Of a DNA stretch of 16,632 nucleotides, positions 1,096-16,632 are shown one piece after another. How positions within the stretch are numbered: the first letter of the stretch is position 1; each line of letters opens with the position of its first letter. The notes under the pieces are model-generated. The model worked only from the letters and a program-made list of their open reading frames with translations. It was not told where the DNA came from and made no database searches. The DNA is taken from contig JBHGNT010000733.1 of the NCBI GenBank assembly GCA_043228905.1, positions 1 through 16,632 on the forward strand, written 5' to 3'. This stretch comes from Azolla caroliniana. Lineage: Eukaryota > Plantae > Polypodiophyta. A program made the translations under genes and the position numbers.

Positions 1096-1551
1096 TGTTA
1101 CGGGCATGACCATTTAATATCCCATGGTGAGAATTTAACGTAGTATTCTATACACGTGGATAAGTGTGAGGGTTAAACGAGAGTGTAAAGAAGGGGAGGA
1201 TTACTTTTAATCCTCCGGATTGAGACAACCCATTAGGTCAAGTGTGAACTTGCCTGGGGGCCTTGGGTATCGCTATGAATAAGAGGCCTAGCTACCCTCA
1301 TTTGATCATCTTTTTGACTACATCGAGACTCTGCTCTTATGGTGGGTCAACTCTTGTAGCGAGTGCACCAGCACTAGGTACGACTCGACGCCATGGCGGT
1401 GGTATGGGACGCCGATCGAGGCTCGATTCCGTCTCGATCCCTCCGCTCGGGGGTGGTCGGGTGGATCGACACCCTTCTTTCTCTTTCTCCTTTCTATCTA
1501 TCATTAGTTTATCCTTATCTTAAGCTTACTTTAGTACCTAGATCTCTAATA
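1096..1551 (+). repeat. 5' LTR of element 1
   Basis: Begins TGTTACGGGC and ends CTCTAATA. Colinear with 8546-9001, with about 22 substitutions and no indels by manual alignment. Confidence 0.97.
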
Positions 1552-1553
1552 TT

Positions 1554-1565
1554 TGGTATCAGAGC
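1554..1565 (+). promoter_or_regulatory. Primer-binding site complementary to the 3' end of initiator tRNA-Met
   Basis: TGGTATCAGAGC 2 nt downstream of the 5' LTR; canonical plant PBS. Confidence 0.95.
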
Positions 1566-1853
1566 TATGTACTAATGTTTCTTTGTTTGTCTTTTGTCTT
1601 TTGATTGATGGTGATCGATCGATGTGCGGTCGGCCTTGATCCAGACAACGTTCACCAAAAAACTTCGGTAACTCTTTCTGTTATTTTTTTTTCTATTCTC
1701 TCTTCTCCCATCTAATCATGTCTTTAGTTTATATGTCTTTTTTTTTCATTAAGTCAATGATGTTGTAGTGGTCTTTAATTAATTATCTAAAATGTTTACA
1801 TATTTGCACAAGCTCAATACCTCGTTTGACATATAAATAATATGTGATGAGTG

Positions 1854-2066
1854 TCGTATGCGTACGAGGTTAATACCTCAAATACGTATTATGTTCACGA
1901 ACATATGTTACATTTGCGTATGAGTTTAATACCGTGATTTGTTGTAAGGGATATGCGTTTGGTCTCGTATGCGTAAGAGGTCAATACCTCAATTGCGTAT
2001 TACGATGATCTCTTATTTGTGGATGTTTCGTGTGCGTAGAGGTATATACCTTGATTACGTATCTCG
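1854..2066 (+). repeat. About 4 copies of a ~40-bp stem-loop motif in the element 1 leader
   Basis: TCGTATGCGTA-x-GAGGT-NNAT-ACCTC-x-TRCGTAT at 1854-1893, 1965-2004 and 2028-2066, with a degenerate copy at 1914-1939. Confidence 0.7.
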
Positions 2067-3240
2067 ATCACACCATTTGTGGCTATTTAATATAACGATA
2101 TGTTTAATATAGGCATATGTGGTCACGTATATACGTATTTGATTGTATATATGTGATAAGTAAACATATGTGTATATTCGTTATTGCATGATTATATCGA
2201 AAGTTGTCCTTGTCGGGAAAAGGATGTTGGTGGCCGTCCTCACATTTTTGTGAGAATGGCGTTGTCACCATCCCTTTTTCAACAAATTTTGATTGTTGAC
2301 AACCCCGTTGATGACCTCGATTTCGTTATGTAAAGAAACGCCTATAGCCATAATAATGTTGAGTACGTAGGGCTTGACCCACTTCAAGTGAGGTCGCTCC
2401 AATGTCACACGTATCCAACATCCCTCCCTCGTTACATGGATACGATGCCACCATGAGCTCGTTCTTACGAGAGGCATTCGTAATGACGTGACCATGTGAT
2501 GGGCCACGTGGGCCTACTATGAAACGACGGCTCATTTGGCTTGACCATTAGGTTTCACTTTGGCGTATGCCATCGCAATTACGAGACTTGAGGTTAGGTA
2601 ACGTACCAACATAGTTTTGGTAAATGAGGGCGAAATAAGGACCCTTGACATATATGTTCTTTTAAAAAAAACATATATGATCAAATGCCTCACATATCTC
2701 TTATACGCATCAAACATTAAGCATTCGAGAAGAGAAACTTACTTGGTTGGCTCAAGTGTTTAATGTATTTGTTCTTGAGGTCTCGAGTTCAAATATGACC
2801 AAGACCATACAACATCCTTGATACATATGACTATAACACATGTTTAGACTTAAGGTCTAAGTGCACCTCGAGGTCCTCGTAATAGGACTTAAAGAGCCGA
2901 AACCACATATGTGGGCAAAGAAACATAGTTTATTGTTAACATTTTTTTCGTGTATAAACTACTCATGATGCGAACATACATGGTTGAGCCTCGGGGAACC
3001 GCCATATAAAATCGATATAGAGATCAGGGAAAGACATTAAATTGTCACCCCCATGGTTTTTAAAACACCTTTGTGTTACCATAGTAACCTGATCTTGAAC
3101 CTCATCTCATACGTCTAGAGGGGTATTGACGTGAGATCATGATATCGATTAATGTTTGCCCATGATATGTTTACATCACGACATGATGTTATGACTATCT
3201 CTCTGACCTTATCCTATTTCTTTTCCAGAAATAATCTTTA

Positions 3241-4179
3241 ATGGCTCAAATTAATGACCCGATGTCATCCGCTCAAGCGGAAGGAACTCAAGGGACTCCT
3301 CTTGGACAAATGTCCACTGAGATGTATTTGGCACAAATAAGCCAATACCTTAGTTTCACCGCTCAACAAATGACCGAACTTCAGCAATCTCAGAGTGCTC
3401 TTGAGGCACGTGTCATTAGTCTACAACGTGAGACTAATAGACCTGATGAGCAACAAGGTGAACCATCATTTCTCGTTAAGCCATTTACAGGAGACAAAAA
3501 GGAAAGAACCGAAGAAGCAATCTGCACCTGGCTGGGACGATGGGAGTCTCATTTTCAGCTCTATCCCACGCCAGATAGTACGAAGATTGCATATGTCGGC
3601 CGAGAACTCGGGGGTAAGGCCGCCGCCTGGTGGCGTGGGCTCCGTACTATGGGGAAATTGCTCGATACCTGGACAGATTTTGTCACGGTTTTTAAGGGCC
3701 AATTTCTGCAACCTCCCTCTCGAACCGAGGCAGCACAAGCTTTAATGAACCTCTCTAGCAGGAAATTTTCCTCGCTAGAAGACTATGTTCACCATGCTAG
3801 AACCCAATTCCAAAAATCGGGTCTAGAAGGGGACAATTGGTTGATAGCTTGTTTTGTCAATGGCATCCCCAATTCGGACTATCACTGGATAGTGCATGAT
3901 AAGGATCCAAAATCCTTCGAAGAGGCCGTTGAAATAGTTCTTCGCTATCAACGCACTTCGAAGAAGGACCACAACAAACCCAATGAAGCGCCCGGGACTA
4001 AGAAGTCACAATTTGTTGGGAAACGCAAGACACCCAACGCATTCCTGGATCGCGATTGTAAGCAACAACATCCTTTTTGCGTATTCTGCAAAAAGAAGGG
4101 TCACACAAAAGAGCAATGTCAAAAGCTCCAACGGAAAGAGCACGACAACAAACTTAAAGCTTCAGACCATAAAGATTAG
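3241..4179 (+). CDS. gag: Gag of element 1 (retrotransposon capsid plus CCHC zinc knuckle)
   Basis: 312-aa ORF with L-x-G-x-A-x-x-WW...W-x-x-F-x-x-x-F capsid signature and CVFCKKKGHTKEQC (CX2CX4HX4C). Confidence 0.92.
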   Translation: MAQINDPMSSAQAEGTQGTPLGQMSTEMYLAQISQYLSFTAQQMTELQQSQSALEARVISLQRETNRPDEQQGEPSFLVKPFTGDKKERTEEAICTWLGRWESHFQLYPTPDSTKIAYVGRELGGKAAAWWRGLRTMGKLLDTWTDFVTVFKGQFLQPPSRTEAAQALMNLSSRKFSSLEDYVHHARTQFQKSGLEGDNWLIACFVNGIPNSDYHWIVHDKDPKSFEEAVEIVLRYQRTSKKDHNKPNEAPGTKKSQFVGKRKTPNAFLDRDCKQQHPFCVFCKKKGHTKEQCQKLQRKEHDNKLKASDHKD

Positions 4180-5688
4180 ATTCCTAATGTCCGTCAGGTC
4201 TATACACATCATTTAAGTAATTGTCAATGTTCTTTCCCTCACTATGTATTGGGTCCCAATGATTTACTACGTGCAAACAGGTATATCAATGGATCTCCTC
4301 TACAATTTTTATTTGATTCGGAAATCTCACACAATTTTGTGAATGATCGTTTGGTTCAGATATGGAGAATCCAACCCACCGTAAGTGATCACACCTACAC
4401 GGTGCAGTTGGCTGATGGAAGAGTACAATACATCAACGGGGCAATTCATTCATTAGGAATTTCTATTGATACTTATATAGAGGAACTAGACTTCCATGTA
4501 ATGAATCTTTGTACCACCGATGTAATACTGGGTTATCCCTGGTTTTATAATAAAAACTCTTCTTTATTTATTGGTTGGGTTCGCCATTCCATTTCTTTTG
4601 TACTGAACGATTTTACGCATTTTATTCAATGTATCAAAAAACAATCCCTCTCGATTGTTTCCTCGTGTTCATCAAAATCTGAGTTGTCTTGTTCTACGTT
4701 ATTTTATTGTGTACTTGATCCAGACATTCACATTTACAATATCGATAATGTCCTGGTTCAATTAACATATTTTGAACAACAACAACTTGATGAAATCTTA
4801 AATGATTTTCATGATGTTTTTCCAAGTGAACTACTTGATGGGTTACCTCCTAAACGTAATATAGACCATCGTATAGATATTGTACCTAGTGTTGCACCAA
4901 TAAGTATACCTCCGTATCGCTTAAGTCAATCCGAAGAAGATGAGGTATTTGAGCAAATCAAGGACTATTTACGAATGGGTTATATACGTTATAGTAAATC
5001 TCCATGGGGTGCACTAGTTCCCTTGGTAAAAAAGAAAGAGGGCACATGGCGTATGTGTATTAATTACCGACGCTTGAATAAAGTGACGATCAAGAATTCG
5101 TACCCATTGCCCCGGGTTGATGATCTAATTGACCGTCTCTAGGGAGCTCGGTATTTTACGAAACTTGATCTCCGTACTGGCTACCATCAAATACGAATAA
5201 GTGAGGACGATGTTCCTAAAACAGCATTTCGTACGCGCTATGGCCATTACGAGTTTTTGGTTATGCCTTTTGGTTTGACCAATGCTCCGGCTACTTTTCA
5301 ACAAGAAATGAATGACATTTTCCGAGAACAACTTGGAAAATTTGTCGTTATTTTCTTGGATGATATTTTAGTTTATAGCCATACATTAAAAGAACATGTT
5401 AGACATGTCCGCTTTGGTTTACAAACATTGTGTGACAAACAGTTTTATGCGAAGATCTCAAAATGTGAGTTCTTCAAGAAATCAATTACTTATCTAGGAC
5501 ATCTCATAACCGAACGAGGAGTTGAAATTGATCCTTTTCGCATTAAGAAAATCAAGCTTTGGCCCACTCTTCGGAATATTCGAGAAGTTCGATCATTCCT
5601 TGGTTTTGTCGGGTTTTTGCGAAAGTTTCTTCGTAATTACTCCCAATTGACGATGCCGTTTACTGATCTTTTAAAAGGTCAAACACGT
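4180..5688 (+). pseudogene. pol: pol of element 1, 5' part (aspartic protease and reverse transcriptase)
   Basis: Same frame as gag. Protease [12 protein letters not shown] (DSG changed to DSE); RT motifs [45 protein letters not shown]. Nonsense TAG at 5140-5142. Interrupted at 5688 by the solo LTR. Confidence 0.95.
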
Positions 5689-5757
5689 TGTCGTAGTGTA
5701 ATTTGCACACTACGTTAAAAATTACATTTTTGGTCTCTTCGGATAGGGCATGGAGTA

Positions 5758-5960
5758 CCCGGTGAGAACCGGAAGAAGGAACCGGTAAGGAGACCTGACA
5801 AGAGCCGGATGAAGAAGGCCGGTGAGAGTCGGTGAGAAACGGAAGAGGACCGGTAAGAAGGATTCGGTAAGAACTGGATAACGAAAATCGGCGAGCACCG
5901 GATTAAGCAGAACCGGAAAGAGCCGGATGAAGAAGGCCGGTGAGAGTTTCTCACCGGATG
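5758..5960. repeat. CCGG-cored, purine-rich degenerate tandem repeats in the solo LTR
   Basis: Many CCGG(T/A)RAG units; exact 30-bp repeat AAGAGCCGGATGAAGAAGGCCGGTGAGAGT at 5800-5829 and 5918-5947. Confidence 0.85.
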
Positions 5961-6015
5961 AAGAGACATATTTGTAAATAGAATAAAGTATAAATATATA
6001 TATCCTACATGCATC

Positions 6016-6076
6016 GGGCAAGATTCGAACCTTGCACCTCCATGTTAATAATGTTAAGCCTTATCACTATACTAGC
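6016..6076 (-). other. tRNA-like Pol III internal promoter module (A box and B box) in the solo LTR
   Basis: Minus strand TAGTATAGTGA (6074-6064) and GGTTCGAATCT (6031-6021), 32 nt apart; GCAAG/CTTGC T-arm-like hairpin. Confidence 0.6.
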
Positions 6077-6580
6077 GTATTATGAATTTTAAAGTTATAC
6101 TAAACTTTATCCCATGTAAAATTTCTAGACATGCATGGTACAAAAAGTTATTCATGCATAGACACTCGAGTAAAAAGAAAAGATGAGATAGAAACTAATC
6201 ATGCACATGCAGTGTGCATGAAAACTAAAAATAGGAAAAGCATGATGCTTGCATGTAATAAACTTAGACTCTTCCAACACTATATAAGGAAGAGAGAAAG
6301 ATGTATAGAGGTTGTTGATTATTTTACAAGGGTTGATCAATCTAATATATTCGTGGGATTCACGATTTTTTTCCATCTACTTCTCTCTTACATTCTAAGT
6401 ATCAATTAATACACTATACTCGTGGGATTCATGAGTTTCATATCTTCTTTCAAATATTTTTCTTTCTTGCAATCAATTCATAAGGAGCCTTATCTCATAT
6501 TCTTCTTTCTCCTAGTCCAAAACCTCAACGGTTCACACCCGACGCACGCAACGATCCGGAGCCGAAAGGCACGACAACGT

Positions 6581-8567
6581 AAGTCTACAAAACCTATTGT
6601 GTGGAATGCTACACTAGACCTCACCTTTAAGGAACTCAAGGTCCTGGTTTGCAAGGCTCCTTCACTTCTTTTACTTGATCCTTCAAAACCTTTTGACGTT
6701 GAAACCGATGCAAGTGATTATGCTATAGGTGCTGTCTTGTATCAAGATGGTAAACCAATAGCATTCGATAGTAAGAAACTTGATTCTGCTCAATGTCGGT
6801 ATACCGTTCAAGAAAAGGAATTATTTGCAGTTATACATGCGCTCAAAACATGGCGCCATTATCTTTATGGAAATCGCTTTGTGGTAACTACGGACCACGA
6901 GTCCTTGAAATATTTTTGTGACCAACAAGACCTAAAAGGTCGTAAGGCAGGATGGGCTGATCTTATCTAGGACTTTGATTTTTCCATACGATATCGTAAA
7001 AGGTTCCATGAACACTGTCACTAATGCACTAAGTCGCATCTGTGAAGTTAACATGCTTAGCTTCACTAAAATAACATCAGATCTTTATGATCACCTTCGA
7101 GGAAAATATCTTGATGACAGTTATTTTGCAAAATATTGGGCAAGAGTTGAGTCTGGAACAGACACCACCACATCCTCGAAGGAATACTTCCACATTGCTA
7201 ACGGTTTGCTCTACCGTAATGGGAAGGTTTGTGTTCCAGATTTACCTGAGGTCAAAAAGAGGATTCTTTTTTAATACCATGATGCACCCTCACCAGGGCA
7301 CCCTGGAATACATCGTACACTCGTTCTCATCTCCACTCAATTTTATTGGTCTAAGATGCGTCCTGACATACATAGCTATGTGACTAAATGTCACCAGTGT
7401 CAGGTTAACAAAGCCGAGCAACTTAAAGCCGCAAGACTTTTACATCCCTTGGACATTCCCAATAATAATTGGGAAAGTATATCCTTGGATTTAATTGTTA
7501 GCTTTGCTCGCACCGAAAAAGGTCATGATGCCATCTGGGTTGTCGTTGAAGGACTAACTAAAATAGCCAGATTTATTGCTACTAAAACCACGGTAACAGC
7601 TCTTGAATTGGCTTACTAATTCATTGACGAATTATTTCGTTTTTATGGGTTACTGATGGATATCGTGAGTGATCGAGATCCAAAGTTTACTAGTGACTTC
7701 TGGACGCAAGTCTTTAAGAAGTTAGAAACTACGTTGAGCATGAGCTCCACGGATTATCCTCAATCTGATGGACAAACAGAACGAGTAAATAAAATTATTG
7801 AGGACATGCTTCGAGCATATGTTGGTGCAAAACCAACAAAATGGGAATGTTATCTCCCAATTTTGGAGTTTGCTTATAACAGCTCCAAGCATACGTCGAC
7901 AGGATATAATCCTTTTATGTTGATGTATGGTTTTCAGCCACGAGCCCCGATTCATGTTAATATACATCATGATGAGTTGCGGAGTACGCAAAACTTTCTT
8001 TGGGATATGTAAGATATGTTGCATATTGCACGAGATAATATAAAAACAGCTCAAGATAGAGCGCGTTTTTATGGCGACCATCATAGGAAACCTCGTGTAT
8101 TCAACCCTAGACAGAAGGTATTTTTACGTGTACCTCACAATTCTAAGACATTGTCTACGGGTAAGTGCGCTAAGTTAGCCCCACGGTTTTGTGGACCTTT
8201 TATAGTCCTCAAACATATTGGGCCATCAGCCTATCGTCTCGCTCTTCCCGATGGTGTTGGAATTCATCCGGTCTTTCATGTGAGTCATCTAAAAGAACTT
8301 CTAGGTTCTGGTGACAATACAGTTACAACTGAAACTCTGGTTACTTCTAAAGATTTATGTTCTAAACCACATGTACCAGAAAGAATTCTCGATGTTAAAA
8401 CAAAAAAGTTACGTACTAAAGATATCCGAGAATTTAAAATTAAATGGATGGACAAATCTATCAAAGATGCCACATGGGAACGCGAGAATACTCTAAGAAC
8501 AAACTTCCCTAACTTTCCATTGCAATGTTTTAAAGAAGGGGAGTATGTTACGGGCATGACCATTTAA
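6581..8567 (+). pseudogene. pol: pol of element 1, 3' part (RNase H, integrase, chromodomain)
   Basis: RH motifs ETDASDYAIGAVL, EKELFAV, TDHESL; IN HHCC (YHD..GHPG..CHQC), SDRDPKF, DGQTERVN, RFCGPF; group-II-type chromodomain PERILD..FKIKW..DATWE. Stops end at 6970, 7274, 7619 and 8012, with a +1 frameshift near 6998-7001. Confidence 0.93.
8532..8543 (+). promoter_or_regulatory. Polypurine tract of element 1
   Basis: AAAGAAGGGGAG 2 nt before the 3' LTR. Confidence 0.9.
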
Positions 8568-9001
8568 TATCCCGTGGTGAGAATTTACCGTAGTATTCTA
8601 TACACGTGGATAAGTGTGAGGGTTAAACGAGACTGTAAAGAAGGGGAGGATTACTTTTAATCCTCGGGATTGAGACAACCCATTAGGTCAAGTGTGAACT
8701 TGCCTGGGGGCCTTGGGTATCGTTATAAATAAGAGGCCGAGCTACCCTCATTTGATCATCTTTTTTACTACATCGAGACTCTGCTCCTGTGGTGGGTCAA
8801 CTCTTGTAGCGAGTGCGCCAGCACCAGGTACGACTTGACGCCACGGGGGTGGTATGGGACACCGATCGAGGCTCGAGTCCGTCTCGATTCCTTCGCTCGG
8901 GGGTGGTCGGGTGGATCAGCACCCTTCTTTCTCTTTCTTCTTTCTATCTATCATTAGTTTATCCTTATCTTAAGCTTACTTTAGTACCTAGATCTCTAAT
9001 A
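8546..9001 (+). repeat. 3' LTR of element 1
   Basis: 456-bp copy of 1096-1551, followed by TSD CCCTT; retains TATAAAT at 8724-8730. Confidence 0.97.
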
Positions 9002-9535
9002 CCCTTGACCGAGAAATTGGTCTTGTCCCCGATCGTGGCCCCTTCTTCAGCCTTTTCTAGTTGGTTGCCCATTTAGCCTTGCTTCTTTGACCCATTGCGC
9101 AAGTGTCTCCTCCTCCGACAGCCTTTCCATCACCTCATGAGCGGCTTGTAGGTAAACCACATCTTGCACTAGCTTTTCCAGTACAATGGGATCAGTTTGG
9201 ACATTATCAGTAGTTGGGCTCAGTGGGGTGGAATCAATGTTTTGGGTTTCGAAGAAATGTTGCATCAAGTGTTCAAAAACACTATTGTTATGAACCTCAG
9301 ATTTACATGTTGTTTCCAATATTTCATGGCTTTTCACATCGTTGCCTAATTCATTACCATCTTCCAAAAGAATAGGGTGGAGTTGATCTGAAGGAGATGT
9401 GATAGCAGGACTCTTACTTTCAGCCACGTTGGCAACTATCTCCTCATCGGTTGCAGCGTCATCAGCACCAGACACCTCATGCGCCCTCCTTAATCCACAA
9501 GATTCTACAACAACATGGTCGCTAATTAGGTACAT
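9002..9535 (-). pseudogene. Probable upstream exon of the gene interrupted by element 1 (acidic low-complexity N-terminal region)
   Basis: 162-aa ORF. After TGA at 9049-9047 the frame continues RRGHDRGQDQFLGQG through the TSD into ALEMERNTY (1090-1064) on the other side of the element. Same strand as the NIF-like exon. Confidence 0.45.
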
Positions 9536-10440
9536 CTTAGCTAACTAGCTATTCTTCTAGACTATGACAGTAGCTAATTAGCTACCATTGAGCTAATTAG
9601 CTACTTCGCCTAGGTATGGTACAAGTTAATTAGCTACTACACTACAACCTAGTACCAACTAATTAGCCACTATAACTAAAGTATGGTAGTAGCTAATTAG
9701 CTACCACTTAGCTAATTCGCTACTACACTACAACCTGGTACTAGTTAATTAGCCACTATAACTAAAGTATGGTAGTAGCTAATTAGCTACCACTTAGCTA
9801 ATTAGTTATTGTACTAAACTATGGTAGCAGCTAATTAGCTACTCTACTAAACTATGGTAATAGCTAATTAGCTACCACTTAGCTAATTCGCTACTCAACT
9901 AAAGTATGGTATTCGCTAATTAGCTACTATACTAAAGTATGGTATTAGCTAATTAGCCATTATAACTAAAGTATGGTAGTAGCTAATTCTCCCACTTAGC
10001 TAATTAGCTACTATACTAAACTATGGAAATACCTAATTAGCTATGTGCTAGCTAATTAGCTACTGTACGAAACTATGGAAATACCTAATTAGCTATGTGG
10101 TACCTAATTACCTACTTAGCTAACGTATGGTAGTAGCTAGTTAGCTACCACTTAGATAATTACCTATTGTACTAAACTATGATAATAGCTAATTAGCTAC
10201 CACTTACATAATGAGTTACTCAGCTAAAGTATGGTATTCGCTAGTTAGCCACCACTTAGCTAATTTGCTACTATACTAAAGTATGGTACTATCTAATTAG
10301 CTACTATACTAAACTATAGTAATACCTTATTAGCTATGTCGTAGTAGCTAGTTAGCTACCACTTAGCTAATTACCTATTGTACTAAACTATGGTAGTAGC
10401 TAATTAGCTACACTTACATAATTAGCTACTCAGCTATAGT
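9520..10440. repeat. Degenerate tandem array of palindromic TAGCTAATTAGCTA units with TACTAAA(G/C)TATGG spacers
   Basis: Dozens of AGCTAATTAGCT variants; perfect 16-bp palindrome GTAGCTAATTAGCTAC, e.g. 9689-9704; 86-bp higher-order duplication starting at 9635 and 9721. Confidence 0.93.
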
Positions 10441-10569
10441 AAGGTCTCCCTCTCTTCGTCGATCGCGCCTCTCCTCTTCGCGATCCCGTCCTACAGATCT
10501 AGCATTGGCCGCGCCGCAGGCGGCTAGCATGATAACCGCCATGAGGAATATGATAGTGAGCTTCGCCAT
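10441..10569 (-). pseudogene. 5' stub of a second 2S-albumin-like gene copy (signal peptide plus start of repeats), truncated at the palindromic array
   Basis: ATG at 10569: MAKLTIIFLMAVIMLAACGAANARSVGRDREEERRDRRREGDL, then runs into the array. Near-identical to the N-terminus starting at 12686. Confidence 0.8.
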
Positions 10570-10946
10570 TGCTTGTGTTCGGAACTACCCCGGTTCTCTC
10601 TCCGCCTATTTGAGTGTGTCATGGTTGATCCACCCTTATATACACAAGGCCATGCATGTCTAGTAGATGCATGTCCCTTCCCACGTCCATTCCTATGGAT
10701 GTTAATTGCATGATCCATACTTGGGCCACGGAAGAGACCATTCATTTTTCACCACCCCCCTTTATGTGTCCAGGATCCTCCTCCTTCGACCTACCATATC
10801 ACTAGCCACATACTCACCTCCATCACACCAGGAGTGGGATTATGCACTTGGGCATTTCAAATCTACTAACCTATGGACGCTTCGTCCATATTGCAACGTA
10901 GACAATATGTAACCTCAGGATAGCCACCTACACATGTGATGCCATT
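10459..10946. repeat. Direct repeat copy A (promoter plus 5' coding part of the 2S-like gene); partner is 12576-13049
   Basis: Colinear, highly similar ~480-bp segments; the two ATGs are 2117 bp apart. Confidence 0.93.
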
Positions 10947-11707: not shown

Positions 11708-12686
11708 TTAAAAGTGGCGAATACAAGCGTGTGGGCGAAGATCACATTGTTGGAGAAGGCGAGAGGTTGCCATGCTTAGAAGTTGTTCCTCCTCATCGGC
11801 CTTGAAACGACGACGTTGTTCCTCATCTTGTCGTCCGGTCATGCGATAACGACGCTCGTCCTCCTCGCGCCTACTACTGTCTCTCTCTCCTTGGCATCCT
11901 CTTCCCATTGACGACGTTCCCTGGACACTTGGCTCTGGCGGTGACCATCATGGCGTGCCTCTTCTCCGCTAATGTATAAGGCTTCGCGGAGCCGGTTGCA
12001 ACGCTCTTCTACGGGGATTTGTTCTACGTTCCTTGTAGCATATTTCGGAGGGCCTTGCATATCGGCTGATTTCATCCCAAGAGGTGCGACGGCTTCGTCC
12101 ACGTTCTTCCTTATCATTACGTTCTTGTAGGTGGCTGACTTGCCTATCGACGAAGTTTTGGCACTCTTGCCTCAACTCTCGGTCTCGTGGCTCATCGCGA
12201 TCGCGACTACGAGGATCCCGATCCTCTTCTGACTCTCTCCTATTGTCTCTGCGACGTCCTTCTTCGAGGGATCCTTCACGACGTCGGTCGCGCCTCTCGT
12301 CACGTGACTCATCATGATCATGACTGCGATGATCCCGTTCCTCTTTGGACTCTCTCTTGTTGTCTCCGTAGTGCCCCTCCTCGATGGACCCCTCGCGACG
12401 TCCCCCGTGCCTCTCCTCATCGAAATCCTCCTCCTTGCATTGATCACGACTGCGACGATCCCGGTCCTCATCCAACTCTCTCTTGTTGTCTCTGTAGTGC
12501 CTCTCATCGATGGACATCGATGGATCCCTCACGGCATCCGCCACGCCTCTCCTCTTCGACATCCTCCTCCCTACATCGATCACGTCTCTCCTCTTCCTGA
12601 TCCCGTCCTACAGATCTAGTATTGGCCGCACCGCAGGCGGCTAGCATGATAACCGCCATGAGGAATATGATAGTGAGCTTTGCCAT
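11708..12686 (-). pseudogene. Secreted 2S-albumin-like (prolamin superfamily) storage-protein pseudogene with an R/E/D-rich repeat extension
   Basis: Four overlapping ORFs join into ~321 aa after removing a 10-bp duplication (12505-12524), a 1-bp insertion (~12027) and a 2-bp (GA)n slip (~11880-11890). The result has signal peptide MAKLTIIFLMAVIMLAACGAA, charged repeats, then ECQNFV..RPSEICYKELEQIPVEERC..EEEQLLSMATSRLLQQCDLRPHACIRHF. Intronless. Confidence 0.72.
12170..12582 (-). repeat. Three and a bit coding tandem repeats (~117-126 bp; 39-42 aa)
   Basis: DRCREEDVEEERRGGCREGSIDERHYRDNKRELDEDRDRRSR / DQCKEEDFDEERHGGRREGSIEEGHYGDNKRESKEERDHRSH / DHDESRDERRDRRREGSLEEGRRRDNRRESEEDRDPRSR. Confidence 0.88.
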
Positions 12687-13049
12687 TGCTTGTGTTCGGA
12701 ACTACCCCGGTTCTCTCTCCGCCTATTTGAGTGTGTCATGGTTGATCCACCCTTATATACACAAGGCCATGCATGTCCCTTCCCACGTCCATTCCTATGG
12801 ACGTTAATGGCATGATCTATACTTGGGCCACGGAAGAGACCATTCACTTTTCACCACCCCCCTTTACGTGTCCAGGATCCTCCTCTTTCGACCTACCATA
12901 TCACTAGCCCTATACTCACCTCCATCACACCAAGAGTGGGATTATGCACTTGGGCATTTTAAAATCTACTAACCTATGGACACTTCGTCCATATTGCAAC
13001 GTAGACAGTATGTAACCTCATGATAGCCACCTACACATGTGATGCCATT
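12576..13049. repeat. Direct repeat copy B (5' coding part plus promoter), cut off by element 2 at 13049
   Basis: Aligns with 10459-10946. Similarity stops at GATGCCATT, exactly where TGTCATGG begins. Confidence 0.92.
12753..12872 (-). promoter_or_regulatory. TATA, RY and ABRE promoter of the 2S-like gene
   Basis: TATATAA (12759-12753, ~67 nt upstream of the ATG), RY element CATGCATG (12768-12775), ABRE cores ACGTGG (minus, 12788-12783) and ACGTGTC (12866-12872). TATA, RY and the first ABRE are conserved in copy A. Confidence 0.75.
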
Positions 13050-13212
13050 TGTCATGGCGACATACATTTTGGCCTTACAAGGATTCGAGCCCAAGACATC
13101 TTGGTCTATATGTTAGACCTTTAACCATTATACTAACATATATGATGTATAATTATAATAAATGTATTAGTTATTACAAGACATTTAGAGTATTCTAGAA
13201 CATTTAGAGTAC
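13050..13212 (+). repeat. Truncated 5' LTR (U3 start) of element 2
   Basis: Starts TGTCATGG; ACATTTAGAGTA repeated at 13181-13192 and 13200-13211; carries a tRNA-like module like the solo LTR. The partner LTR is outside the window. Confidence 0.6.
13077..13137 (-). other. tRNA-like Pol III internal promoter module (A box and B box) in the element 2 LTR
   Basis: Minus strand TAGTATAATGG (13135-13125) and GGCTCGAATCC (13091-13081), 33 nt apart. Confidence 0.6.
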
Positions 13213-16200
13213 TCTTGTTTCATGGATCGTGAGTTTGCTGTAATGCATAATATTCAGTTACATAAGCTCCCAAGCATAGTGTCAGTTGGAGTCATTGATG
13301 GACGCCCCATAGCATCAGGTGATATAGTTGAAGAGTCTGAACCAATTCATGTAGTCCTAGGCAATTTGGCTAGTGTCATCCCATTCAACATCATTAGTAG
13401 TCAAGAGCACTTCCTAGTTCTTGGTCTTCCATGGTTTGAGCTACATAACCCAACTATTGATTGGAGAAAAAGAACCATTGATGAAGTCACAATACAGTCT
13501 GAGCCTCTTAAAACTCCAACAAAGGATATGACATTGCAAAAGATTTCGACAATCTCTATACATCAATTACGTGAGGAAGGACAGAAGGAAGACATGTTGG
13601 TGTTCGCAGTTTTAGCAACTCCCACATCAAACTCACAAGAATCGGGGGTCCAACTACCGAAGAAATATATAGAATTTTCCGATGTTTTTGATAAGGTGAA
13701 GGCCAATAGACTACCAGAGCATCGACCATATGATTGCCCGATTGATTTGTAGCCCGGAAAAGAGCCTCCATGGGGGCCAATTTATAACCTTTCACCCACG
13801 GAGTTAGCGGTTCTTCGAGAATATATCGATGAGAACTTGGCGAATGGGTTTATCCAGCATTTAAGATCTCCTACCGGTGCACCCATATTTTTCGTTAAGA
13901 AGAAAGATGGTTCGCTTCGTCTGGTCGTGGATTATCGAGGATTGAATAAAGTAACTATTCGAAACCGATATGCTCTACCATTGATTGCAAGCCTTCTGGA
14001 ACGCCTCAATGGAACTAAGTATTTCACAAAGTTAGATCTTCGAGGTGCTTACAATCTTGTTCGAATTCGTCCTAGGGATGAATGGAAGACTGCTTTTCGT
14101 ACTCGCTATGGCCATTTTGAGTATACAGTGATGCCATTTGGTCTCATGAATGCACCAACAGTTTTCCAACATATGGCAAATGACATTTTTCAAGATTTCC
14201 TCGATATTTTCGTCATAATTTACCTAGATGATATCTTGATCTACTCAAAAACTCAAGAGGATCATGATATACACGTTCGACAAGCTTTGCAACGGTTGCG
14301 TGAATATGGTCTCTATGCAAAATTGGAGAAGTGCAGCTTTGACCAGCGTCAAGTGGAATTTTTGGGGTACATAGTCTCTTCACATGGCATCTCTATGGAC
14401 CCAGCAAAGGTTCAAACAGTTTTGGATTGGCAAACACCACAGTCTGTGTGAGATGTACAATGTTTTTTAGGGTTCGCAAACTTTTATCGCAAGCTCATCA
14501 AAGATTATTCAAAGATCGTATTGCCCCTCACTCAATTGACACAGAAGAATCAACCATTTGTGTGGAGTATAAATGCAAACTCTGCATTTGAAGGATTAAA
14601 GCAAGCATTTACATCCGCACCAATTTTGATGCATGTTGATCCATTGAAGCGCTTTATACTGGAAGCTGATGCATCTAACTTCGCACTAGGAAGCGTATTA
14701 TCCCAGATTAGCAATGATGGCCAACTGCACCCTGTGGCTTTTCATTCACGGAAATTCGAAGTTGCAGAAATCAACTATGAGATTCACGACAAAGAGCTTC
14801 TTGCCATTGTGGATTCTTTTCAACAATGGCGTCATTTTTTGGAGGGTTCATCTCAACAAATCATTGTCTATAATGATCACAAAAATCTAACGTACTTCCA
14901 AAGTGCTCGAGTCTTGAGTCGTGGACAAGCTCATTGGGCGCAGTTTTTAACTCGTTTTGATTTCGTAATTCTATATCGCCCTGGGACGCAACAAGGCAAA
15001 GCAGATGCTTTATCTCGGCGTTCATATATGGAACTTCAACCAGGAGAGGCCGCATTTGAAAGTCAGAAGCAAATCCTCTTGGTTCCTGACCGTCTACGAC
15101 TAATGGCTTTTCATGCTATAGACACACCCGAGGATTCAAGTCTTCTAGACTCCATTCGGGAGCATATTGAGACTGATGAATTCGCCCAAGATATTCTGAA
15201 CCATATTATCCCAGATCGTGCTTCTTGTTCACAATCTCAAAATCCTCATCAAGACTACAACCAGTTCAATTGGCATGATGGTTTACTTTTTCGACAAAAT
15301 CTCTTATATGTGCCTGATGGTCCTTCTCGACTCCAAGTCTTGCAACAATGTCATGATACACCAATGGCTGGACATTTTGGCATCCACAAGACTTTGGCAT
15401 TAATTTCTCGAAGGTATTGGTGGCCACGACTTCGCCATTTTGTTACAGATTATGTTCATAGTTGTGATACATGTTGCTGATCCAAAAAACCTCGACATCA
15501 TCTATATGGCTTATTACAGCCAATGCCTATTCTTGAGAGTCCATGGAAATCTATTTCATTGGACTTCATTACGGATCTACCACCTTCCAAGGGTTTTGAT
15601 TCTATTCTCACGGTAGTAGATCGTTTTACCAAGATGGCACATTTTCTTCCCTGCACAAAGGCCATTACGAGCCAAGAGACAGCCAAGTTACTCATGCGAG
15701 AGGTGTTTCGGCATCATGGTCTTCCTGATGATATTATCAGTGATCAGGGTCCCCAGTTCATCTCAAAATTTTGGCGGCACATGTTCAAACTCTTACATAC
15801 TTCTTGCAAACTCTCTTCCGGCTACCATCCTGAAACTAATGGACAGAGTGAGTACACCAACCAAATAGTAGAACAATATCGTCGTTGTTTTGTCAACTAT
15901 CAACAAGATGATTGGGTTGATCTATTACATTTGGTGGAATTTGCTTACAAAAACTCAGAACATTCTTCTACTGGATATTCCCCATTTTTTGCAAACATTG
16001 GGTACCATCCTCGTTGGACTATGCTTGAACATCCCGAACTCCTAACAAACCCAGATGCTGAAGATCGGCTCACTCGACTCCAAGAAGTTCAAGATATCCT
16101 TTTGCACCATTTATGTGATGCTCAAAACACTCAAAAGAAGGTTGTCGACCGTCATCGATGTGATTCATCAACTACGTTTCAAGTGGGGGTTCGAGTATGG

Positions 16201-16632
16201 CTTTTACAAGGTCGCATTAAAACAACTCGACCTTGTTGCAAATTGGATTATCAACGTTTTGGCCCATATGTGATATCTGGTAAGATCAATGATGTGGCAT
16301 TTCGCCTTGATCTTCCCCCTCATATGCATCTTCACACAGTCTTCCATGTTTCATTTTTGGAGTCGTACACAACCAGCTCTATTCCAGGCCGTCTTACATC
16401 TCCCCCACCTCCAATCGAAGTTTCGGATGGCTCCGAATATGAAGTTGCTGCCATTCTCGACTCCAAGATCGTTCGCAACAAACTGTATTATTTGGTTGAC
16501 TGGTTAGGTTATACACCTAATGATCGAACATGGGAACCTCTTGAGAATCTTCCTAATGCCTCCGAAATGGTTGCTGCATTTCACAACAAATATCCTCATA
16601 AGCCAAGTCCGAAATCTTGTCTTCCGACTCGT
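13213..16632 (+). pseudogene. pol: pol of element 2 (partial protease, RT, RNase H, integrase, classical chromodomain)
   Basis: Single frame with 3 stops (13750-52, 14449-51, 15478-80). Motifs: [75 protein letters not shown], and chromodomain EYEVAAILDSK..YYLVDWLGY..RTWEP (~16435-16590). Confidence 0.95.

Follow-up and report, generated by a model that had tools for sequence, protein, structure and literature searches.

Pol III promoters inside LTRs are already known, and the closest described system is Helenus (TRIMp3), in which, going by the excerpts of its description, a tRNA-derived LTR sequence keeps conserved A and B boxes, has lost the tRNA fold and is not the primer, with SINE capture as the proposed origin (PMC10886601). 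In the same excerpts, these elements are non-autonomous TRIMs of 311–1263 bp whose only plant host is Selaginella, the boxes lie in sense in the supplement's families and are presumed to be the main promoter, and tRNA-like parts are noted in "not a few" Repbase LTRs, the analysis there being limited to TRIMs (PMC10886601). Cassandra TRIMs likewise have a Pol III internal promoter in a plant retroelement LTR, which is 5S-derived (type 1), lies in sense and drives the transcript of a non-autonomous element (PMC10886601, excerpts). Autonomous foamy viruses carry LTR miRNA cassettes, which are A/B-box Pol III units giving hairpin RNAs with terminators (excerpts of PMC3993851). The cen1 tDNA barrier of fission yeast is a transcribed host tRNA gene at a fixed locus, with a barrier function that has been shown; in the part of its description drawn on here, this function depends on the A box, the TATA element and a complete Pol III complex, whichever way round the gene lies (PMC2040200). 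Among Gypsy elements, Tcn1 chromoviruses occur in mosses and clubmosses and combine a chromodomain with self-priming, and the non-chromovirus clade Phygy occurs in Physcomitrium and is marked by a 4-bp NCGN target duplication; the excerpts of the papers describing them report no Pol III-type LTR site for either (PMC6317226, PMC2864245).

Here we analysed a stretch of 16,632 nt (the window, meaning the whole stretch), which is a nest of Gypsy LTR retrotransposons, and found two tRNA-type A/B-box modules on its minus strand, one in a solo LTR and one in the LTR tip of a Tcn1-like chromovirus. Judged by its conservation among relatives, this LTR module is real and under selection. It shares with Helenus the tRNA-derived boxes, the lost fold and the absence of a primer role, and its origin was likely the capture of a SINE head. 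Unlike in Helenus, the module is carried by protein-coding elements that have a TATA box of their own (a pair of 888-bp LTRs is already longer than the longest Helenus), and its boxes point outward from the tip of the U3; neither a hairpin nor a terminator is conserved as in foamy viruses. The A box, the B box, the upstream TATA-like zone, the proposed function and its orientation independence recall the cen1 barrier, although ours is a fold-less mobile site with a putative function. The second element resembles Tcn1 in its chromodomain and self-priming, and the solo LTR resembles Phygy in its target duplication. The distribution of these two groups would suggest a moss as host. As far as the excerpts consulted go, an outward Pol III-type site in the LTRs of protein-coding Gypsy elements is new, LTR-borne Pol III promoters as such being known from Helenus and Cassandra; no description of such a site in moss Gypsy LTRs was found in the literature searched, a scope outside which lie Repbase notes and most subscription papers. 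The first module and its surroundings comprise the following features:

1096–9001, plus strand: outer chromodomain-bearing Gypsy element, host of the solo LTR (from Pfam and the LTR pair)
1096–1551 and 8546–9001, plus strand: LTRs of the outer element, 434/456 identical
5143–5718: RT ORF of the outer element
6410–6970: RNase H ORF of the outer element
5689–6576, plus strand (orientation inferred): solo LTR, 888 bp, with inverted ends and target duplication seen directly
5685–5688 (left) and 6577–6580 (right): 4-bp target-site duplication ACGT, from sequence and empty-site joints
6064–6074, minus strand: A box, tRNA positions 8–19, 1 mismatch to TRGYNNARYGG
6036–6039, minus strand: positions 44–47 (AGGT), in register with what the Tcn1-like clade conserves there
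6022–6031, minus strand: B box, positions 52–61, 0 mismatches to GGTTCRANYC
6075–6134, minus strand: AT-rich stretch upstream of the A box, candidate TFIIIB loading zone, also present in Tcn1-like LTRs
6281–6288, plus strand: probable TATA box for Pol II transcription of the solo LTR; distance to the A box 207 bp

The outer element is flanked by a 5-bp target duplication (CCCTT) and has a PBS that we take to be of tRNA-Met type. Between its RT and RNase H ORFs sits the solo LTR, which an earlier reading of the window made from the letters alone (the sequence-only reading) had recognised and which proved real, with 6-bp inverted ends (TGTCGT/ACGACA), the ACGT duplication and empty sites in other copies of the host element, where contigs skip about 892 bases at this place. 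An 8-bp inverted repeat lies just within its left end (5693–5716). The same reading had called an A box, a near-perfect B box and a 32-nt spacing on the minus strand, and these read as quoted (6074–6064 and 6031–6022), the two consensus motifs listed above being our assumed definitions of the boxes. With one mismatch allowed in the A box and none in the B box, the window holds one match against 0.025 expected per shuffled window (1/40 shuffles); with one mismatch in each, there are two matches, namely both modules, against 0.375 expected (2/40 shuffles reach two); and with two and one mismatches, the four matches do not stand out from chance (2.75 expected). The box signal within the window alone is only suggestive, and the strong evidence comes from relatives.

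The module had also been described as antisense and located in the U3. This holds directly for Tcn1-like LTRs, as shown below, and for the solo LTR, in which no PPT or PBS was seen, it follows from the plus-strand TATA at 6281, a motif that is kept at this place in one diverged contig of run X2. We consider the antisense orientation of the solo-LTR module to have a good probability, short of certainty because other TATA-like stretches exist (plus strand at 5989, minus strand at 6286 and 6002). The wording "these chromovirus LTRs" fits the second module and does not fit the solo LTR, which is probably a Phygy-like, non-chromovirus Gypsy family, since its ACGT duplication, known from one site only, matches the 4-bp NCGN mark of that clade; Galadriel and Bryco make 4-bp duplications too.

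The solo-LTR family is high-copy (4145, 3804, 2933 and 718 contigs in four runs), its module is covered by contigs from five coded organisms, and contigs of the four runs cover all 30 bins of the LTR. Among the joints listed in these runs, no common one removes the module, and one rare contig deletes part of it. A one-off insertion, the outcome that the sequence-only reading had named as fatal to its proposal, was thus not what was found, as the module is family-wide. We surveyed variants over 5940–6150 in runs of organisms A, C, D and E from two studies. Run X1 is possibly the window's own source. The module forms the depth peak of this region in organisms C, D and E, and only 5996–6099 of the 211 bases are covered in organism E (run X19). 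None of the few variant rows listed at ≥5% of depth (19 in the 211 bases) falls at the fixed B-box positions or at 44–47; the only B-box variant listed, at 6026 (2–18% of depth), is at the degenerate position 57. The window copy is off-consensus at 6064 and 6067, where the consensus-matching letter makes up 58–95% and 84–96% of depth, respectively, in the four runs; the main two A-box variants therefore go toward the consensus, and the window's copy is slightly decayed. Diverged copies (loose ends in the same AT-rich LTR setting) have a changed spacer and a kept A box. Searches with the LTR-end patterns gave no match in the prokaryotic genomes or viral contigs searched, and the two-module pattern gave none in the metagenome contigs searched, the two matches in the window being the pattern's own source copies; these searches recovered no internal region linked to the solo LTR. 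Pieces related to the solo LTR were seen at L072 1–135 (minus strand), where the piece ends at the contig end just short of the expected B-box place, and at L036 2039–2117 (minus strand).

A parallel module in a different LTR had also been proposed, and it is present, with a 33-nt spacer, in the following setting:

13050–13208, plus strand: 5' LTR tip of the Tcn1-like chromovirus, 80–83% identical to the 3' LTR starts of L003–L006 and L032
13082–13135, minus strand: second A/B module, antisense to the element
13082–13091, minus strand: B box of the second module
13096–13099, minus strand: positions 44–47 of the second module
13125–13135, minus strand: A box of the second module
13189–13752: ORF at the junction of LTR tip and protease region
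13209–16632, plus strand: Tcn1-like pol (RT, RNase H, integrase, chromodomain), ending at the window end, from Pfam, translation and tree

The match of 13050–13210 to 3' LTR starts places the second module at an LTR tip, which an internal deletion has joined to the protease region. The deletion from U3 to the protease region, which left the LTR tip alone, falls at an apparent short microhomology (13208–13215). The integrase of this element carries a chromodomain (Pfam Chromo, E 1.7e-14), and a protein search had no match in the viral contigs searched. Of 20 spacer positions, the two modules have 9 in common (the mean with Tcn1-like families is 6.6), which falls short of showing common ancestry: the two lineages may share one capture or may have captured the module separately. 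In the 5' leader of the outer element, a third and more worn tRNA-like stretch (2745–2800, plus strand) has AGGTC and a B-box-like motif in register; its matrix score is below 12, compared with 26.5 and 33.8 for the two modules, and it was not counted as a third module.

To follow the module beyond the window, 77 loci were fetched via alignment of integrase-chromodomain homologues, in which a PPT and then the LTR start follow 3' of the chromodomain; for 10 of them the rule applied gave no LTR start, and five offered less than 130 nt, leaving 62 that were counted. In 41/62 loci, the opening 130 nt of the 3' LTR hold an antisense module with at most two mismatches, compared with 0/62 LTR tips on the sense strand, 0/55 in the next 130 nt and 0.1% of shuffles. 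Using a matrix, 59 of the 63 matches in 298 kb of Tcn1-chosen loci are at LTR tips, two are tRNA genes and two are unexplained. The carriers are protein-coding, with open gag frames and pol frames of about 1200 codons, and their LTRs (415–516 bp) have a plus-strand TATA box; the B box is 12–63 nt from the LTR end. Module-bearing loci all fall within a narrow range of assembly accessions and possibly come from one campaign. Three tRNA genes (Asn, Thr and Asp; L013 552–627, L013 831–906 and L015 128–201) occur within 1.1 kb of 5'-truncated Tcn1-like pieces in 2 of the 77 loci, and none abuts an LTR end. Tandem Tcn1-like units with a common LTR (pol-LTR-gag), either real or the result of assembly collapse, were seen in L027, L030, L038 and L041.

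On a quick tree of 65 rows, from which 14 loci were excluded (short or stop-rich rows, unassigned state) and which has no named Tcn1 reference sequences among its rows, the module marks one clade (48/52 rows, SH-aLRT 96). None of the 12 outgroup rows has the full module; in five of them (L064, L066, L074, L075 and L076), a 10-mer resembling a B box occurs at about the same place, with no AGGT and a poor A box, and the clade boundary may be less sharp than drawn, given these 10-mers. Within the clade, the module is missing in L001, which has an open pol frame, and in L036, L026 and L053, and one subfamily (L017 and L020) is changed at B-box position 56, a critical base in yeast.

What selection has kept was evaluated in 25 module-bearing families whose pol ends are less than 85% identical to each other (mean 65%). 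Fixed A positions have a pairwise identity of 0.85, fixed B positions one of 0.89 and positions 44–47 one of 0.85. Elsewhere the values are far lower: 0.35 for the free positions of the boxes, 0.39 for the anticodon arm, 0.387 for four-fold sites in pol and 0.37 for each of the two flanks. Positions 47, 53, 55 and 58 are invariant, position 59 is free, the A+T content from −45 to −15 upstream of the module is 0.83–0.84, and the spacing is 32 or 33 in 24/25 families in a U3 that is rich in indels nearby. As anchoring on the best match inflates box identity, 27 families picked regardless of the module served as a control, together with sense-strand and shuffled controls: identities for A, B and 44–47 are 0.76, 0.84 and 0.79 versus about 0.4, 0.4 and 0.28, and a spacing of 32–33 occurs in 89% versus 21%. 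AGGT at 44–47, which was unused in anchoring, is found in 24 of these 27 families, whereas the sense strand has it in 2 and shuffles average 1.15. In a motif-blind alignment, the conserved columns lie mainly at the LTR end and in the module blocks. The proposal that this is a conserved tRNA-derived module is supported by these values, and the comparison of boxes with flanks that had been suggested as its check came out clearly in its favour in the Tcn1-like clade.

These data bear first on the possibility that the module is the neutral relic of a SINE or tRNA fragment captured once. Such a capture has a precedent in the SINE-head origin proposed for Helenus (excerpts of PMC10886601), and the sequence-only reading had listed a captured SINE head among its options. 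A mere passenger, however, should not show box identities of 0.85–0.89 where four-fold sites and flanks are at 0.37–0.39, or a spacing fixed in 24 of 25 families amid U3 indels. On these comparisons neutrality is refuted for the Tcn1-like clade, and overall we regard it as highly improbable.

What the module has not kept is a tRNA. ARAGORN found no tRNA in the window and Rfam none at E ≤ 10 in searches of the window and of 121-nt stretches, and the tRNA gene search that had been called for therefore returned nothing at either module; Rfam gave no 5S rRNA match either, the boxes being of tRNA type. Single-strand folds are weak (z of −2.1, −1.0 and −1.6). Watson-Crick pairs amount to 0.25 in the acceptor, 0.36 in the D, 0.26 in the anticodon and 0.42 in the T stem, none above row shuffles, and the anticodon is random, with 13 different triplets at 34–36 in 25 families. 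A functional tRNA was rejected on these grounds (no conserved stems, random anticodon, ARAGORN and Rfam negative). A run of four T that could act as terminator lies between the B box and the LTR end in 9/25 families (the match in L030 lies in a second LTR copy and was not counted). Because the boxes and positions 44–47 are kept and the stems, anticodon and terminator are lost, we infer selection on a linear TFIIIC/TFIIIB-type DNA site rather than on a tRNA.

The pattern fits reported TFIIIC contacts. According to the excerpts of two papers, the tRNA genes of yeast and nematodes show altered TFIIIC binding or altered transcription when +44 to +47 are changed, the A box is dispensable for TFIIIC binding and positions tauA and TFIIIB, and the commonest A/B spacing is 32 bp (PMC11724288), and TFIIIC makes base contacts in the B box, with a type 2 spacing range of 30–67 bp (PMC11811891). 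The module has this type 2 anatomy, namely an A box, a B box, a spacing of 30–67 bp and an AT-rich upstream zone. The families thus amount to a natural mutagenesis of a plant Pol III promoter, in which positions 44–47 are singled out. TFIIIC very probably binds the module; TFIIIB probably loads on it as well, since the A box is kept though dispensable for TFIIIC binding.

The Tcn1-like elements prime themselves. In ten related loci, the PBS matches the LTR 30–40 nt after the TATA box (12 nt in 8/10 loci, 7 nt and 9 nt in the remaining ones), and from family to family the two sites change together; the region is missing from the window's own copy. Both the R start and the PBS were seen in L014, L015, L017, L019, L020, L024, L030, L038, L046 and L067, and self-priming was also noted in L027 and L041. 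The self-primer sequences resemble a tRNA T-loop or B box in differing registers, possibly by chance. A self-encoded tRNA primer was rejected in view of self-priming, and, since these elements also have their own plus-strand TATA box, the module is neither main promoter nor primer in Tcn1-like elements.

A related idea is that the tRNA complement in the U3 of the plus-strand genomic RNA pairs with host tRNA and aids priming or strand transfer, for which the HIV-1 U3 and the bipartite primer site of Ty3 would be precedents, though neither appears in the excerpts consulted. The motif does lie in U3 beside the PPT, its strand is the one complementary to tRNA, and what has been kept is common to many tRNAs; however, the elements self-prime, no single tRNA is mirrored given random stems and anticodon, and a free position 59 with invariant 47, 53, 55 and 58 is the B-box pattern rather than that of wobble-tolerant pairing. 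We consider tRNA pairing very unlikely.

With its A box and AT-rich upstream zone, the module has a complete promoter anatomy, from which transcription would be expected, and foamy virus Pol III RNAs do arise from LTR A/B-box promoters (PMC3993851, excerpts). The module could thus be a working Pol III gene whose antisense RNA matters, running from the 3' LTR into the PPT and the integrase end and tuning copy number or silencing. However, a four-T run precedes the LTR end in so few families (9/25), no stem is conserved, and with the B box 12–63 nt from the LTR end RNA from the 5' LTR would enter unrelated host DNA. The earlier suggestion of an antisense ncRNA source is weakened accordingly by the missing stem and terminator, and we consider it unlikely.

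We propose instead that the module is a tRNA-derived A/B site under purifying selection that likely assembles TFIIIC/TFIIIB outward and would act as a chromatin barrier or as an open-chromatin anchor for the Pol II promoter, a proposal whose chances of being right we judge to be about even. Mechanistically, TFIIIC and TFIIIB would assemble on the module facing out of the element, and the Pol III complex would form a self-carried barrier beside the element's Pol II promoter, which lies 110–210 bp further in. A chromodomain element landing in silent chromatin would gain from such a barrier at its outer edge, and a chromodomain Gypsy element of Physcomitrium lies in heterochromatic islands yet is transcribed (excerpts of PMC7466625). 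That the benefit to the element is a barrier or open chromatin rather than an RNA product has, in our estimate, slightly less than an even chance. The barrier evidence stems from yeast, and conservation alone would fit barrier, enhancer, attenuator and RNA roles alike.

More tentatively, and somewhat further short of even, we suggest that, in two or more distantly related lineages of autonomous Gypsy elements, each LTR has at its edge a portable Pol III-complex insulator that faces outward and keeps heterochromatin-seeking elements transcribable, and that thousands of solo LTRs seed plant chromosomes with TFIIIC sites shaping chromatin boundaries. How chromoviruses stay active in silent chromatin is an open question, to which a conserved 55-bp LTR site would be one answer that is testable in a gene-targetable moss. 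If true, LTR-borne Pol III promoters would occur not only in small non-autonomous TRIMs but also in protein-coding elements, there in reversed orientation and probably with another function, and these genomes would hold a large unrecognised set of TFIIIC sites.

The distance between the module and the TATA box bears on a further alternative, in which the module directly tunes the neighbouring Pol II promoter independently of surrounding heterochromatin. It could activate this promoter through TBP supply or nucleosome clearing, or attenuate it, for which tRNA-gene-mediated silencing is a precedent. The geometry is divergent and the A box-TATA distance is similar in both lineages (114–209 bp in 9 distinct Tcn1-like LTRs, by hand; 207 bp in the solo LTR), and three-unit arrays resembling heat-shock elements, a motif that we presumptively assigned to the U3 repeats, lie between module and TATA in 12/25 families. 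Yet the distance varies by about 100 bp, and the excerpted literature on tRNA-gene-mediated silencing gave nothing on such LTRs. Direct tuning is in our view quite doubtful. Examples of the arrays are L038 LTR 148–225 and, in the window, 13190–13200.

A last alternative is that the module is a landing pad, at which retrotransposons that target Pol III sites, or further copies of the element itself, would insert at a fixed upstream place; the self-priming relative Tj1 does integrate upstream of Pol III genes (PMC4600332, excerpts). Upstream of the A box, the fetched LTRs have few breakpoints, and these show no fixed distance (25, 56, 59 and 88 nt), in contigs whose collapse hides rare insertions and weakens the test, and the carrier would have no clear benefit; a landing pad is most improbable, and the proposed outward TFIIIC/TFIIIB site remains our preferred reading.

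The part of the window between the outer and the Tcn1-like elements is repetitive. A tandem array with 33- and 52-bp periods (9504–10445) is rich in a short palindrome, which gives many inverted repeats. It is followed by a direct repeat of ~500 bp (10449–10946 and 12566–13049, 95% identical), whose two copies enclose a region of 117–126-bp repeats that also has a low-complexity frame on the minus strand. The end of the second copy is where the Tcn1-like element has inserted.
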